Shown here piece after piece: positions 1-19,619 of a DNA stretch of 64,000 bases. Each line of letters begins with the position of its first letter. Positions within the stretch are counted from its first letter, which is position 1. The DNA comes from Escherichia coli (GTDB taxonomy: Bacteria > Pseudomonadota > Gammaproteobacteria > Enterobacterales > Enterobacteriaceae), in assembly GCF_003334765.1 (NCBI RefSeq), contig NZ_QOWT01000005.1. One strand, written 5' to 3'. The translations under genes and the position numbers were made by a program. A model generated the notes under the pieces. That model ran no database searches. It was not told where the DNA came from and saw only the letters and a list, made by a program, of their open reading frames with translations.

Positions 1-339
1 ACGTGAACCGCCAGAGCCGTAAGGGCCGGGCCACATATCGTATCCGGCTTTGGTAGAGATAATCAGTTCATCGCGATAAGCGGCAAAATCCTCGCGCAGC
101 AGGCGACCAAAGTTCTCTTCTGCGCTTCCTGGAGGCGGCCCGTAATTGTTGGCTAAATCAAAGTGCGTAATGCCTAAATCAAACGCTTTACGCAGGATCG
201 CACGCTGTGATTCCAGCGCGTTAACGTGACCGAAATTGTGCCATAAACCGAGCGATAACGCGGGCAGGCGTAAACCACTTTTTCCGCAATAGCGGTACTG
301 CATCTGCCCGTAACGTTCGGGATTCGCTAACCAGACCAT
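1..339 (-). CDS. yghZ: Aldo-keto reductase (YghZ/Gpr-like), N-terminal 113 codons; 3' end lies beyond window start
   Basis: Reverse-strand translation from ATG (rc of 337-339) reads MVWLANPERYGQMQYRYCGKSGLRLPALSLGLWHNFG..., typical AKR N-terminus; frame continues to position 1. Confidence 0.75.
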   Translation of the reverse strand, partial: MVWLANPERYGQMQYRYCGKSGLRLPALSLGLWHNFGHVNALESQRAILRKAFDLGITHFDLANNYGPPPGSAEENFGRLLREDFAAYRDELIISTKAGYDMWPGPYGSGGSR

Positions 340-491
340 GACCTCTCCTTTCCACCGTTCAATTTCGAAACAATGTTTTTAGTTTAGCGATTCGCCTGCG
401 CGTATCCCGTAGTCTGGCTCACAGAGTGACGAAAAACTGGGCAAAAACACGTGCTTATGCTTTGCTTAAAAAACACCAACTGAGGAGTGCA

Positions 492-1382
492 ATGATGCCG
501 CGTTTAACCGCCAAAGATTTCCCACAAGAGTTGCTGGATTACTACGACTATTACGCTCACGGGAAAATCTCGAAACGTGAGTTCCTCAACCTTGCGGCGA
601 AGTATGCGGTGGGCGGGATGACGGCATTAGCGTTGTTTGATTTGCTCAAGCCAAATTATGCGCTGGCGACTCAGGTAGAGTTTACCGACCCGGAGATTGT
701 TGCTGAGTACATCACGTATCCTTCACCAAATGGTCACGGCGAGGTACGGGGTTATCTGGTGAAACCCGCAAAAATGAGCGGCAAAACGCCAGCCGTGGTG
801 GTGGTGCATGAGAATCGTGGACTGAATCCGTATATCGAAGATGTGGCACGGCGAGTAGCGAAGGCGGGGTATATCGCCCTGGCACCTGACGGCTTAAGTT
901 CCGTTGGAGGTTATCCGGGTAATGACGATAAAGGTCGTGAGCTGCAACAGCAGATTGATCCAACCAAACTGATGAATGATTTCTTTGCCGCAATTGAGTT
1001 TATGCAACGCTATCCGCAAGCGACAGGCAAAGCGGGTATTACCGGATTTTGCTATGGCGGTGGTGTATCGAACGCGGCGGCTGTCGCGTATCCGGAACTG
1101 GCCTGCGCGGTGCCGTTTTATGGTCGACAGGCACCCACCGCCGATGTGGCGAAGATTGAAGCGCCTTTACTACTCCACTACGCGGAACTGGACACCCGAA
1201 TCAACGAGGGCTGGCCTGCTTACGAGGCGGCGTTGAAAGCCAATAATAAGGTCTATGAGGCGTATATCTATCCGGGGGTTAATCACGGATTCCATAATGA
1301 TTCCACGCCCCGTTATGACAAATCTGCCGCCGATCTTGCCTGGCAAAGGACGCTGAAATGGTTCGATAAATATCTCTCCTGA
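492..1382 (+). CDS. yghX: Dienelactone hydrolase family protein (YghX-like), apparently intact
   Basis: ORF 426..1382; RBS GAGGAG at 483-488 precedes ATG at 492/495; alpha/beta hydrolase features (FCYGGG nucleophile region, HGFHN near C-terminus). Start codon choice uncertain. Confidence 0.75.
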   Translation: MMPRLTAKDFPQELLDYYDYYAHGKISKREFLNLAAKYAVGGMTALALFDLLKPNYALATQVEFTDPEIVAEYITYPSPNGHGEVRGYLVKPAKMSGKTPAVVVVHENRGLNPYIEDVARRVAKAGYIALAPDGLSSVGGYPGNDDKGRELQQQIDPTKLMNDFFAAIEFMQRYPQATGKAGITGFCYGGGVSNAAAVAYPELACAVPFYGRQAPTADVAKIEAPLLLHYAELDTRINEGWPAYEAALKANNKVYEAYIYPGVNHGFHNDSTPRYDKSAADLAWQRTLKWFDKYLS

Positions 1383-1500
1383 TAGGTTTATCTCTTACGG
1401 GATTACGTCTTAAACAAGCATGAAAAAATAGCGTGCGCAAAAGTCGTTCTTTGCCTAAAATATCGCTATATATGACAATATATAGCGAATGAGGTGAACG

Positions 1501-1788
1501 ATGAATAACCATTTTGGTAAAGGCTTAATGGCGGGATTAAAAGCAACGCATGCCGACAGTGCGGTTAATGTGACAAAATTCTGTGCCGATTATAAACGCG
1601 GTTTTGTATTAGGCTACTCACACCGGATGTACGAAAAGACCGGAGATCGCCAGCTTAGCGCCTGGGAAGCGGGTATTCTGACGCGCCGTTATGGACTGGA
1701 TAAAGAGATGGTAATGGATTTCTTTCGTGAGAATAATTCCTGTTCTACGTTGCGCTTTTTTATGGCCGGTTATCGCCTAGAAAATTGA
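1501..1788 (+). CDS. yghW: Small conserved protein of unknown function upstream of hyb operon
   Basis: 95-aa ORF with the syntenic position of yghW between yghX and hybO. Confidence 0.7.
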
Positions 1789-15772: not shown

Positions 15773-17122
15773 TTGGCGGGTTTTAACATCAAACATTGGT
15801 TTGCAGATGGCGCGTTTCGCACCATTATTCGCAATAGCGCCTGGTTAGGCTCCAGTAATGTCGTGAGCGCTTTACTGGGTCTGTTGGCGCTCTCGTGTGC
15901 CGGTAAAGGGATGACGCCCGCCATGTTTGGCGTACTGGTGATTGTACAATCGTACGCCAAGTCGATCAGCGATTTTATTAAGTTTCAGGCATGGCAGCTG
16001 GTGGTTCAGTACGGAACACCAGCATTAACCAACAATAATCCGCAGCAATTCCGCAATGTCGTCTCATTTTCCTTCTCGCTGGATATCGTCAGCGGCGCGG
16101 TGGCGATTGTCGGCGGCATTGCCTTACTCCCTTTTCTTTCCCATTCATTAGGTCTGGATGACCAAAGCTTTTGGCTGGCAGCGCTGTATTGCACGCTCAT
16201 TCCTTCAATGGCTTCCTCCACGCCGACCGGCATTCTGCGTGCGGTAGATCGCTTCGATCTAATTGCTGTACAGCAAGCGACGAAACCTTTTCTGCGCGCA
16301 GCGGGGAGCGTCGTAGCCTGGTATTTTGACTTTGGTTTTGCGGGTTTTGTTATTGCCTGGTACGTGTCGAATCTGGTTGGCGGCACCATGTACTGGTGGT
16401 TTGCCGCGCGCGAATTACGCCGCAGAAATATCCATAACGCCTTCAAATTGAATCTGTTTGAGTCTGCCCGACACATTAAAGGCGCGTGGAGTTTTGTCTG
16501 GTCAACCAACATTGCCCACTCCATCTGGTCGGCGCGTAACTCGTGCAGCACAGTGCTGGTGGGGATCGTGTTAGGACCCGCTGCCGCCGGGTTATTTAAA
16601 ATCGCCATGACATTCTTCGACGCCGCCGGAACGCCAGCGGGTTTACTGGGCAAAAGTTTTTACCCAGAGGTGATGCGTTTAGATCCGCGCACCACCAGAC
16701 CGTGGTTGTTAGGCGTGAAGTCAGGTTTACTGGCGGGCGGAATCGGTATTCTGGTGGCGCTCGCGGTGTTGATCGTCGGCAAGCCGCTTATTTCGCTGGT
16801 GTTTGGCGTTAAGTATCTCGAAGCGTATGACCTGATTCAGGTGATGCTGGGCGCAATTGTGATTTCGATGCTGGGCTTCCCACAGGAGTCATTGCTATTG
16901 ATGGCGGGAAAACAGCGCGCTTTTCTCGTGGCGCAAACCATCGCCTCAATCGGCTACATCGTATTGCTGTTCATGTTCTGTCATCTGTTTGGCGTGCTGG
17001 GAGCAGCGTTTGCTTATTTCGGTGGGCAATGTCTGGATGTGGTGCTCTCGTTAATTCCGACCTTAAAGGCATTTTTTCAGCGCCATTCCTTGCTTTATAA
17101 CGCAGCCGGAGAGAAATCCTGA
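15773..17122 (+). CDS. yghQ: Polytopic membrane protein, MOP/Wzx-like flippase superfamily
   Basis: 449-codon ORF with many hydrophobic helices; apparent TTG start at 15773 (next in-frame ATG would remove the first predicted TM helix); start uncertain. Confidence 0.7.
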   Translation: MAGFNIKHWFADGAFRTIIRNSAWLGSSNVVSALLGLLALSCAGKGMTPAMFGVLVIVQSYAKSISDFIKFQAWQLVVQYGTPALTNNNPQQFRNVVSFSFSLDIVSGAVAIVGGIALLPFLSHSLGLDDQSFWLAALYCTLIPSMASSTPTGILRAVDRFDLIAVQQATKPFLRAAGSVVAWYFDFGFAGFVIAWYVSNLVGGTMYWWFAARELRRRNIHNAFKLNLFESARHIKGAWSFVWSTNIAHSIWSARNSCSTVLVGIVLGPAAAGLFKIAMTFFDAAGTPAGLLGKSFYPEVMRLDPRTTRPWLLGVKSGLLAGGIGILVALAVLIVGKPLISLVFGVKYLEAYDLIQVMLGAIVISMLGFPQESLLLMAGKQRAFLVAQTIASIGYIVLLFMFCHLFGVLGAAFAYFGGQCLDVVLSLIPTLKAFFQRHSLLYNAAGEKS

Positions 17123-17946
17123 TGATGAGAAAATATTTCCCGCTTGAGGCGAGCGAGCGTCTATTTGTTGCAGTTGAAGAAGATGATGTCGTTGATGCAC
17201 AGGTCAGTTTGCCGCCGACTATCGCACTAAGTTGTACCACCGAAATCATCCATGATAATTACGCGTTATGCCTGCAATTCTGGCTCAATGGCGTCAATCG
17301 CCAGGAGTTACTGCGTTTAATATGCAAACAGGCCAAAGGCGATGAGTTGACTGCTGATGAGCGCAAACAATTTAAATACATGCGAGCGCGCTACAAGCAC
17401 CTGCGTTTTGCGCAACGGCTGTATTTAAAGAAGCATCAGGCCGGATTTTTATTCGGCAAAACGACCGTTTTTTTGGGGCGTTTTCAGGACGGTTTTCGTA
17501 ACGGTAAGAAAAATATTGTGTCGTATTACGGCAACTTGTTACGGGTTTATTTAAGCTCTCCGGTCTGGTCGTTGGTGAACTATTCATTACGCCATAGCCA
17601 GTTAGAAAGCGTAAGCGGTTTTATTGCCTATCGGCAAAAGCAAATGCATACCCTGAAAGAGATAATTGCCAAACCGCGACTAACCGGCAGGGAATTTCAT
17701 GATGTGCGAAAAATCATCAGCCAGCAGGTTTCTTATTACGACACCTTAAGATCGCTTGATCCTGAAAATAAAGAGGCGTTACAGATTTCCCGCTTCCTCG
17801 CCGCCATTAATGGCCTGATGGGGGATAAACACGACGACATGGTGGCGGATGATATGGAAAACCGCCAGTCGTATGATGCACCGGTGGCGCTGGATAGCGA
17901 TATTCGCCAGCGCTTAGAGCTGCTGATTTCGCGTTTTCCGCTATAA
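17122..17946 (+). CDS. Hypothetical cytoplasmic protein, no recognisable motifs
   Basis: 274-aa ORF; ATG overlaps yghQ stop (TGATGATG); same strand and tight spacing as flanking genes. Confidence 0.55.
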   Translation: MMRKYFPLEASERLFVAVEEDDVVDAQVSLPPTIALSCTTEIIHDNYALCLQFWLNGVNRQELLRLICKQAKGDELTADERKQFKYMRARYKHLRFAQRLYLKKHQAGFLFGKTTVFLGRFQDGFRNGKKNIVSYYGNLLRVYLSSPVWSLVNYSLRHSQLESVSGFIAYRQKQMHTLKEIIAKPRLTGREFHDVRKIISQQVSYYDTLRSLDPENKEALQISRFLAAINGLMGDKHDDMVADDMENRQSYDAPVALDSDIRQRLELLISRFPL

Positions 17947-17954
17947 CCGGAGCA

Positions 17955-18518
17955 ATGATGTCATCTCGTTTGATTATTGCGCTGATTATCATGCTCTTAG
18001 CCCAGGGTGTGCAGGCACACAATTTCGTCACTGGCAAAACGGTTACCCCCGTTTATATCCAGGAAGGCGGCGAGCTGCTTCTGAATAGCGACGACGAAAT
18101 TCACTACCAAAAGTGGAACAGCACACAGCTGGCGGGAAAAGTCCGCATTATCCAGTATATCGCCGGGCGTAAGTCGGCGAAGAAAAAGAACTCACTGTTA
18201 ATTAAAGCGGTTGAAGCGGCAAACTTTCCGCAGGATCGTTTTCAGCCCACCACCATTGTGAACACCGATGATGCCATCTTTGGTACTGGCTATTTTGTCG
18301 TTGGCAAAATCGAAAAAAATAAACGCCGCTATCCGTGGGCGCAATTCGTTATTGACGGCAATGGACTGGGACGCGTTGCCTGGCGGTTGCCGGAGCAGAG
18401 TTCAACCATTCTGGTGCTGAATAAAGACGGGCAAATTCAGTGGGCAAAGGACGGCAGCCTGACGCCGGAAGAGGTAGATCATGTCATTGCGCTGGCGCAG
18501 AAACTGATCAATGAATAA
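17955..18518 (+). CDS. YtfJ-family periplasmic protein (signal peptide)
   Basis: 187 aa; N-terminal signal peptide (LIIALIIMLLAQGVQA/HN); sequence pattern strongly reminiscent of E. coli YtfJ as I recall it (not verified). Confidence 0.6.
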   Translation: MMSSRLIIALIIMLLAQGVQAHNFVTGKTVTPVYIQEGGELLLNSDDEIHYQKWNSTQLAGKVRIIQYIAGRKSAKKKNSLLIKAVEAANFPQDRFQPTTIVNTDDAIFGTGYFVVGKIEKNKRRYPWAQFVIDGNGLGRVAWRLPEQSSTILVLNKDGQIQWAKDGSLTPEEVDHVIALAQKLINE

Positions 18519-18548
18519 AAAATTCAAAGGATTGAGGGTGTTAGTGAG

Positions 18549-19619
18549 ATGAAGCTGGTTGAACACTACATCATGCGTGGTACGCGCCGTCTGGTGCTGA
18601 TTATCGTCGGTTTTCTGATCTTTATTTTCGCCAGCTACTCCGCACAGCGTTATCTGACCGAAGCGGCAAATGGGACCTTAGCTCTTGATGTTGTGCTGGA
18701 TATCGTTTTCTACAAAGTGCTGATTGCACTGGAGATGTTGTTACCTGTTGGTCTGTATGTGTCAGTTGGCGTGACGCTAGGGCAGATGTATACCGACTCG
18801 GAAATTACCGCTATCTCTGCGGCGGGGGGCAGTCCGGGACGCTTGTACAAAGCCGTTCTTTATCTGGCGATACCGCTAAGTATTTTTGTCACCCTTCTGT
18901 CGATGTATGGTCGGCCGTGGGCTTATGCGCAGATTTATCAACTGGAGCAACAGTCGCAGTCGGAGCTGGATGTTCGCCAGTTGCGGGCAAAGAAATTTAA
19001 CACTAACGATAACGGACGAATGATCCTTTCGCAGACGGTTGATCAGGATAATAATCGCCTGACTGACGCGCTGATTTATACTTCTACTGCCAATCGAACC
19101 CGCATTTTCCGCGCCCGTTCGGTTGATGTGGTTGACCCATCACCTGAGAAACCGACCGTTATGTTGCATAACGGGACCGCCTATCTTCTCGATCATCAGG
19201 GGCGTGACGACAACGAACAGATCTACCGTAATCTGCAATTACATCTGAATCCGCTGGATCAAAGCCCTAACGTCAAACGCAAAGCAAAATCGGTCACGGA
19301 GCTGGCGCGCTCCGCCTTTCCTGCCGATCATGCCGAACTGCAATGGCGACAAAGCCGTGGCCTGACAGCATTGTTGATGGCGCTGCTGGCCATTTCATTA
19401 AGTCGGGTAAAACCGCGGCAAGGGCGATTTTCAACGTTATTGCCACTGACGTTGCTGTTTGTTGCCATTTTTTATGGCGGCGACGTCTGCCGTACGCTGG
19501 TGGCTAACGGTGCGATTCCCCTCATTCCTGGTTTGTGGTTAGTACCCGGACTCATGCTAATGGGCCTGCTGATGCTGGTCGCACGCGACTTCTCTTTGCT
19601 GCAGAAATTTTCCCGATGA
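18549..19619 (+). CDS. LptF-like permease (YjgP/YjgQ family), paralogue not part of the canonical lptFG locus
   Basis: 356 aa; N-terminal TM helices, a periplasmic domain, then C-terminal TM helices, the typical LptF/LptG layout. Confidence 0.7.
   Translation: MKLVEHYIMRGTRRLVLIIVGFLIFIFASYSAQRYLTEAANGTLALDVVLDIVFYKVLIALEMLLPVGLYVSVGVTLGQMYTDSEITAISAAGGSPGRLYKAVLYLAIPLSIFVTLLSMYGRPWAYAQIYQLEQQSQSELDVRQLRAKKFNTNDNGRMILSQTVDQDNNRLTDALIYTSTANRTRIFRARSVDVVDPSPEKPTVMLHNGTAYLLDHQGRDDNEQIYRNLQLHLNPLDQSPNVKRKAKSVTELARSAFPADHAELQWRQSRGLTALLMALLAISLSRVKPRQGRFSTLLPLTLLFVAIFYGGDVCRTLVANGAIPLIPGLWLVPGLMLMGLLMLVARDFSLLQKFSR

Follow-up and report, generated by a model that had tools for sequence, protein, structure and literature searches.

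The window analysed here is a 64,000-nucleotide stretch of Escherichia coli DNA (NCBI RefSeq assembly GCF_003334765.1, contig NZ_QOWT01000005.1), and the gene in question lies close to its first letter. Positions 495-1382 hold yghX, a core gene of E. coli, in an intact allele that encodes a 295-residue protein of the dienelactone hydrolase (DLH) branch. An earlier note on this DNA, made from the sequence alone, had proposed a yghX-like dienelactone hydrolase, and the family model NF041440, the Pfam DLH domain and the alignment with K-12 all bear this out. The finding is ordinary and already known: the family is catalogued, a structure has been solved, the K-12 copy is annotated as a pseudogene and the intact state is the norm. 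We explain the locus as an intact, maintained yghX allele that K-12 has lost, whose product carries a candidate twin-arginine translocation (Tat) leader and which has no tie to the neighbouring hyb operon; in this explanation as a whole we have high confidence. The start region, the coding sequence and the catalytic domain are arranged as follows.

340-494, no strand assigned: divergent gpr-yghX intergenic region, including a length-variable A-tract at 469-474 (sequence, annotation of strain B771, alignment).
483-488, plus strand: Shine-Dalgarno-like GAGGAG (sequence reading; the start is used in K-12 by tagged YqhI, PMC6001520).
492-494, plus strand: extra in-frame ATG of the window allele, probably not the start (alignment, Shine-Dalgarno spacing).
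495-1382, plus strand: intact yghX coding sequence, 295 codons and TGA (open reading frame; coding sequence called in B771 by the Prokaryotic Genome Annotation Pipeline, PGAP; NF041440; Pfam DLH and YqhI-like).
744-1376, plus strand: DLH (alpha/beta-hydrolase) domain, residues 84-294 (PF01738, Protein Data Bank (PDB) entry 4ZV9, Foldseek).
1050-1052, plus strand: codon of Cys186, the catalytic nucleophile, in G-F-C-Y-G-G (equivalent to ClcD residue 123, which is Ser in the C123S variant 4U2C; invariant in 79 homologues).
1191-1193, plus strand: codon of Asp233, the triad acid (equivalent to ClcD Asp171; invariant).
1284-1286, plus strand: codon of His264, the triad base (equivalent to ClcD His202; invariant).

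The single uninterrupted reading frame of 297-318 codons described in the earlier note was confirmed. On the plus strand one frame is open from 426 to 1382, and it yields 318 amino acids from GTG 426 and 296 from ATG 492. The window reads ATG ATG at 492-497, and the alignment shows ACG ATG at this place in the other E. coli (K-12, O111:H8). Because of this, ATG 495 is, as judged from the alignment, the conserved yghX start with a product of 295 amino acids, and ATG 492 is a strain-specific single-nucleotide polymorphism private to the window allele. PGAP also places the start at ATG 495 in strain B771, which is 100% identical over window positions 400-1420. The GAGGAG at 483-488 lies just upstream, 6 nt from ATG 495 and only 3 nt from ATG 492. 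Homologues of the protein start with M-[PTSE]-R.

The A-tract at 469-474 has 6 A in the window and 7 A in K-12 and O111 (alignment). Extensions upstream of the start thus fall in different frames between strains, and the 318-residue form is not a conserved protein. The same polymorphism explains the 308-residue form, 'MLCLKKHQLRSAT-MPRL...', which is found in databases and in one recent paper. Neither GTG 426 nor the start of the 308-residue 'MLCLKKHQLRSAT...' form was accepted as real, given the change of frame at the A-tract, the starts of the homologues and the Shine-Dalgarno sequence before ATG 495. The N-terminal peptide that the earlier note had quoted, KISKREFLNLAAKYAVGGMTALALF, was found at residues 24-48. 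A chance open reading frame would not be expected to match NF041440 with E=3e-176 and Pfam DLH with E=1e-46, nor to have a ratio of nonsynonymous to synonymous substitution rates (dN/dS) of 0.04-0.11 between intact E. coli alleles.

Membership in the NCBIfam family NF041440 ('YghX family hydrolase') is defined by a score of at least 460 bits, the curated cutoff, plus end-to-end coverage of the 292-position model. The window protein scores 584.6 bits, with model positions 1-292 aligned to residues 3-294, and the gene is therefore yghX, a member of this catalogued family. In Pfam, with residues numbered from ATG 492, the protein matches PF23678 (YqhI-like) at residues 2-37 (E=8e-20) and PF01738 (DLH) at residues 85-295. 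This two-part architecture recurs as the same pair in all homologues listed.

The solved structure, PDB 4ZV9, comes from E. coli O157:H7 Sakai, where the protein is named 'uncharacterized protein' or EcoDLH. It is the same gene, in the same order gpr-yghX-yghW-hybO as in other E. coli. The crystallised chain lacks residues 1-58 and is 97% identical to the window protein over residues 59-294 (E=4e-160); the substitutions (T59/A, V69/F, S135/N, I154/V, A180/V and Y229/F) are conservative. An AlphaFold2 model of the window protein was built on an alignment of 79 sequences and reached a mean predicted local distance difference test (pLDDT) of 93.3 and a predicted template modelling score (pTM) of 0.90. 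It superposes on 4ZV9 with a Foldseek TMt of 0.98 and a root-mean-square deviation (rmsd) of 1.1 A, and on the dienelactone hydrolase ClcD (PDB 1DIN) with a TMt of 0.80, as befits a DLH-type alpha/beta-hydrolase fold.

ClcD of Pseudomonas knackmussii (carboxymethylenebutenolidase, EC 3.1.1.45) shares with YghX the fold, the Cys-Asp-His triad and the equivalent of Glu36. Residues C186, D233, H264 and E106 of YghX align with C123, D171, H202 and E36 of ClcD (ClcD variants) and are invariant or nearly so in the 79 homologues; the only two cysteines of YghX are 186 and 204. The chemistry is presumably the same, and by analogy with ClcD YghX would be expected to hydrolyse an ester or lactone via a covalent thioester on Cys186. 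However, the two proteins are only 23-26% identical, and ClcD lacks the N-terminal leader: its first residue aligns near YghX residue 68. ClcD also sits in a chlorocatechol operon, whereas the yghX locus has no aromatic-degradation context: among the E. coli, Enterobacter, Rhizobium and metagenomic loci examined, there were no chlorocatechol or aromatic-degradation neighbours of yghX. EcoDLH has been purified by others; in the one assay found, no phosphotriesterase activity was detected, and in its crystal the catalytic Cys is oxidised or modified.

The K-12 counterpart, yghX/yghY, had been given in the earlier note as a frameshifted pseudogene, in contrast to the intact frame here. This proved correct. 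In K-12 (strain MGY, derived from MG1655) yghX carries the PGAP flag 'frameshifted', and the alignment places two deletions in it, both at sites that are whole in the window. The first also ends the native part of the small protein YqhI, which is treated below.

495-605, plus strand: YqhI-encoding stretch, found at L001:1597-1740 in the K-12 locus (translation of the frameshifted K-12 yghX).
603-604, plus strand: site of the 2-bp deletion (TA) of K-12-type alleles, in codon 37; intact here (alignment; 80-mer across the lesion in 1,247 of 5,426 genomes).
964-965, plus strand: site of the 1-bp deletion (one C) of K-12-type alleles, in codon 157; intact here (alignment; 80-mer across the lesion in 1,197 of 5,426 genomes).

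Apart from these lesions, the K-12 pseudogene (formerly yghX/yghY; 'Putative hydrolase fragment YghX' in Swiss-Prot) lies at the same locus with about 97.6% DNA identity, and it has the same start codon and the same first 36 codons as the window.

To place the window allele in the population, we used 5,426 complete E. coli genomes, in which K-12 alleles were counted by exact 80-mers across each lesion. The locus is present in all 5,426 and at least 80% covered in 5,416. Intact length is the majority state, and about 23% of the genomes carry a dead K-12-type allele. Since FDAARGOS_1288 has the 2-bp deletion alone, this lesion preceded the 1-bp lesion; by these two steps, in this order, yghX has been lost from K-12 and from roughly one in four sequenced E. 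coli. Of the genomes with intact length, those sampled were B771, O111:H8 and a urinary isolate whose allele is 95% identical, and in each of them the annotation gives an intact gene. At the level of the whole sample, 655 genomes form a distinct yghX class with just 90-95% identity to window positions 400-1420.

A frame that merely looks intact could belong to a gene that is decaying in the window lineage as it has in K-12. The gene is dispensable, as the K-12 lesions in nearly a quarter of the genomes indicate, and the window allele is rare: only 5 of the 5,426 genomes match it with at least 99% identity over the 1,021 nt from 400 to 1420, most being about 98% identical. It also has four private or minority substitutions (I154, T177, A180 and Y229). 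On the other hand, there are no stops or frameshifts, every catalytic and invariant residue is retained, and the substitutions are conservative and fall in variable columns. The four differences from the O111 allele are likewise conservative and spare the conserved sites. Compared with two other intact alleles, the window allele has dN/dS values of 0.11 and 0.04, and such low values mean that yghX is kept by selection where it is unbroken. Intact alleles are thus under strong purifying selection, the window allele is the normal maintained state, and we regard ongoing decay as very improbable.

Translation of K-12 from the yghX start gives MPRLTAKDFPQELLDYYDYYAHGKISKREFLNLAAK, then CGRRDDGISVV and a stop. 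The resulting 47 amino acids, 36 native and 11 out of frame, are the sole product from the yghX start at the K-12 locus and exactly equal the published sequence of YqhI, a validated K-12 small protein that was detected as a tagged protein (PMC6001520). YqhI was later studied as a small protein induced by low Mg2+, with a deletion phenotype that could not be complemented (PMC11429745). Neither of the two papers mentions yghX or a pseudogene origin of YqhI. By its sequence, YqhI is the frameshift-truncated start of YghX and not the product of a dedicated small-protein gene, so that one of the validated small proteins of E. coli comes from a dead hydrolase gene, as its truncated N-terminus. Its being the stump of such a gene explains the odd deletion and complementation behaviour. 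As tagged YqhI is made in K-12, both the promoter and the start codon of yghX are active. The Pfam name 'YqhI-like' for the N-terminal segment of the hydrolase family derives from YqhI.

The part of YghX that calls for most discussion is the leader, which precedes the DLH domain and comprises the following elements.

495-668, plus strand: leader, residues 1-58, a candidate Tat-type signal peptide; YqhI-like at 1-36 (PF23678, E=8e-20; conservation 0.77-0.83).
570-587, plus strand: S26-K27-R28-E29-F30-L31, a Tat-like motif with Lys for the first Arg (homologue alignments).
660-668, plus strand: A56-L57-A58, candidate signal-peptidase I site, with T59 as putative mature start (homologue columns, start of the 4ZV9 chain).

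We propose that the first 58 residues may be a long Tat-type signal peptide with a tolerated K-R variant of the motif. The enzyme would fold in the cytoplasm and then cross the inner membrane via Tat, and a cut after Ala56-Leu-Ala58 would free a 237-residue periplasmic enzyme starting with Thr59. The earlier note had described the N-terminus as signal-like or Tat-like. This holds for the layout of the primary sequence, with its motif, its Gly/Ala/Thr stretch and P53-x-x-A56-L-A58; it does not extend to a consecutive Arg-Arg, which is replaced by K-R, or to the Tat profiles, which are silent or sub-threshold.

A homologue search with the first 68 residues returned 1,120 cluster representatives at E<=1e-3; among the 150 listed, none was longer than about 302 amino acids. 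The basic pair at positions 27-28 is K-R in 120/120 close homologues and R-R in 99 of 150 diverse representatives, as well as in 65 of the 79 aligned full-length homologues. R28 and F30 are invariant, and the usual forms of the motif are S-R-R-x-F-L-D and N-R-R-E-F-L-D. The stretch that follows is rich in Gly, Ala and Thr, with a mean Kyte-Doolittle value of 1.55 over 15 residues and no charge from 37 to 48 (12 residues). Position 52 is basic in 80% of the homologues and P53, at -6, is nearly invariant. Position -1 (58) is Ala or Gly in 364 of about 380 homologues (96%), -3 (56) is A, V, L or I, and +1 (59) is variable. One sub-threshold match of the Tat profile TIGR01409 aligns end to end with residues 25-58 of a homologue, and one homologue in the AlphaFold Database (AFDB) has been automatically named 'Twin-arginine translocation pathway signal'.

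The leader stands at the extreme N-terminus of the homologues, with longer AFDB entries of 369-679 amino acids left out of account. Fifty-three homologues have longer N-termini; 43 of them have the canonical Met where it is usually found, so that their starts look mis-called, and the rest are mainly extensions of about 6 residues or fragments at contig ends. With the same AFDB entries set aside, upstream Sec signals or extra domains before the leader were rejected on this basis. All homologues with a named organism among the matches inspected come from diderm bacteria. The 4ZV9 chain aligns from the equivalent of T59, after two unaligned N-terminal residues, which suggests that the depositors cut off a predicted signal peptide.

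K-R is a functional natural variant of the Tat motif, as in Salmonella TtrB, and leaders of 52-56 residues with R-R near positions 27-31 exist in Bacillus subtilis PhoD and Zymomonas GFOR. Compared with Tat signals (TIGR01409, PF10518) and with these long leaders, that of YghX shares Z-[K/R]-R-x-F-L, a weakly hydrophobic G/A/T-rich stretch as candidate h-region, a basic residue in the putative c-region, a candidate A-x-A site and a length of about 58 residues. Unlike ordinary Tat signals, it falls below the thresholds of the models, its n-region is conserved across phyla, and it is predicted to be helical and docked. From the sequence pattern we lean towards cleaved Tat export of YghX, with modest confidence.

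A number of observations weigh against export. In the first 35 or so residues of the window protein there is no consecutive Arg-Arg, the motif reading S-K-R-E-F-L instead. In Tat profile searches, TIGR01409 (cutoff 16.7 bits) gave no match on the window protein at E<=10, nor did Pfam TAT_signal PF10518. On 14 homologues with R-R, TIGR01409 produced two matches, of 16.5 and 13.4 bits, both below threshold. In 229 of 377 homologues the run of uncharged residues behind the motif comes to just 12, and position 49 is acidic (Asp or Glu) in 61%. Conservation also extends just past the putative cleavage site, to Q60 and D65, as is seldom seen with a cleaved signal. Others purified the full-length protein via an N-terminal Strep tag, so that a soluble, uncleaved form exists on overexpression. 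No experimental report on the localisation of YghX or of DLH proteins, or on tatABC-dependent export and processing, was found in the literature.

Conservation and structure prediction point in the same direction. The mean majority-residue frequency is 0.83 for residues 1-23 and 0.79 for the DLH domain. In the AlphaFold2 model the leader is not a floppy single helix and instead forms three short helices (11-21, 27-37 and 44-51; pLDDT 75-92). AFDB models of homologues with 45-76% identity superpose over all 295 residues, with a TMq of 0.93-0.99 and an rmsd of 0.8-2 A, whereas comparisons without the leader give 0.80-0.82 for fragments and 0.79 for 4ZV9. By this difference, the models consistently have the leader docked on the enzyme core.

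These data raise the alternative that residues 1-58 are a folded helical subdomain (YqhI-like) on a cytoplasmic enzyme core, for instance a cap or regulatory lid, and that the resemblance to Tat signals is coincidental. Such a subdomain would account for a leader that is conserved like the catalytic domain across phyla, with A6, F9, D18, Y20, H22, R28, F30, L51 and P53 invariant, and for a dN against Enterobacter that is lower in codons 1-58 (0.062) than in the rest of the gene (0.099). The helices with their breaks at a conserved GG, the full-length superposition, the weak or absent response of the Tat models and the solubility of the tagged protein also fit, and a free catalytic Cys, which is oxidised in the crystal, is better suited to the reducing cytoplasm. 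It leaves to coincidence, however, that [K/R]-R-x-F-L, the G/A/T stretch and P-x-x-A-x-A all occur at the N-terminus and end 9 residues before the first DLH beta-strand. The basic pair varies at its first position alone, between K and R only, which is a pattern that Tat tolerates, and the preference for Ala or Gly at -1 is nearly complete. Moreover, the core needs no leader to fold and crystallise (4ZV9), and docking is read from pTM and TM-scores only. We consider a purely cytoplasmic cap a possibility to be taken seriously, though a less probable one.

The conservation of Q60 and D65 beside the putative cleavage site also allows the junction to belong to the mature protein. The leader could then be an uncleaved Tat or Sec signal that anchors the enzyme N-terminally on the periplasmic face of the inner membrane; uncleaved Tat anchors do exist, in Rieske proteins. 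But with 12-15 uncharged residues the hydrophobic stretch is short, and it is also weak, its mean Kyte-Doolittle value of 1.41 over 19 residues being under that of a usual membrane span. AlphaFold2 splits it into two short helices, and the -3/-1 pattern is well kept. An anchor of this kind seems improbable to us.

Whether or not cleaved export applies, the YghX leader is by its sequence an unusually conserved Tat-like element. One tentative view, which we rate as a minority option, is that the leader of the YghX family is a phylum-spanning structured module that combines a Tat-type motif with docking. Such a module could serve both as Tat leader and as propeptide, keeping the Cys hydrolase masked or chaperoned until it is exported; alternatively, it could be a cap domain with a mere likeness to a Tat signal. 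Abundant LTAKDFPQELLDYYDYYAHGK in proteomes would argue for retention of the leader.

The genes on either side of yghX are the following.

1-339, minus strand: 5' part of gpr (L-glyceraldehyde-3-phosphate reductase, an aldo-keto reductase), divergent from yghX (B771 annotation).
1501-1788, plus strand: yghW (DUF2623), the downstream neighbour, followed by hybO at 1977 (open reading frame list, B771 annotation).

The earlier note had suggested an exported hydrolase next to the Tat-dependent hydrogenase operon (hydrogenase-2); the comparison of loci does not support a link between the two. The order in E. coli is gpr (divergent), yghX, yghW and hybOABCDEFG. Enterobacter mori keeps the divergent gpr-yghX pair, with a chemoreceptor gene following it and neither yghW nor hyb, and the metagenomic homologues with R-R are lone genes in varied contexts. 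As synteny is not conserved, the adjacency to the hydrogenase is local and uninformative on function, and a functional link of yghX with hyb or yghW was rejected. In our explanation yghX would be monocistronic, without a functional tie to the hyb operon. In K-12, the spacer between yghX and yghW contains a mapped constitutive promoter (PMC3946193), which fits a monocistronic yghX. Our own scan for promoters and terminators around yghX gave no more than shuffled sequence yields.

The same spacer contains a perfect 11-bp inverted repeat, TCGCTATATAT-GACA-ATATATAGCGA, at 1463-1488, with 12 nt between its end and the start codon of yghW. It has the look of a candidate operator, bound by a dimeric regulator, more than of a terminator; the scan had it only as a terminator-like site on the minus strand.

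Plasmid-borne YghX was found in unrelated surroundings in Rhizobium johnstonii 3841 (pRL11, L015:5001-5888) and Agrobacterium tumefaciens (pAtH25_79a, L016:5001-5888). These Rhizobiaceae proteins are 77% identical to E. coli YghX over the full length and share the K-R variant of the motif. Such identity is unexpectedly close for alpha- and gammaproteobacteria and suggests that the K-R clade may have spread by horizontal transfer.

yghX is one more example of K-12 as a degraded reference, and the same window holds others: a 9-kb lipid- or lipopolysaccharide-like cluster is gone from K-12, and so is the greater part of a type II secretion operon. At about 15773-24844 the window, like B771, has a full-length yghQ plus this cluster of about 9 kb, and K-12 has IS5 beside a truncated yghQ at the site. 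The cluster encodes a hypothetical protein, a YtfJ-family protein, paralogues of lptF and lptG, a serine palmitoyltransferase, an acyl carrier protein, an epimerase/dehydratase and a fatty acyl-AMP ligase. The serine palmitoyltransferase beside the lptFG paralogues suggests an export module for a sphingolipid-like or modified lipid. The third locus that is intact here and degraded in K-12 is the sslE-pppA-gspS2-gspCDEFGHIJKLM (type II secretion beta) operon at about 36319-52796; it is complete in the window, and K-12 keeps only gspC, a partial gspL and yghD.

After the secretion operon, where K-12 has tRNA-Phe, the window carries a polysaccharide-type cluster (53786-63988) with an ABC transporter permease and ATPase, galE, a family-2 glycosyltransferase, hypothetical proteins and an IS3 transposase. 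It is headed by a JUMPstart RNA element (RF01707, 58.5 bits) at 53786-53824. The small RNA C0719 (RF00117, 294 bits) lies at 33870-34091 on the minus strand, between glcB and glcA.

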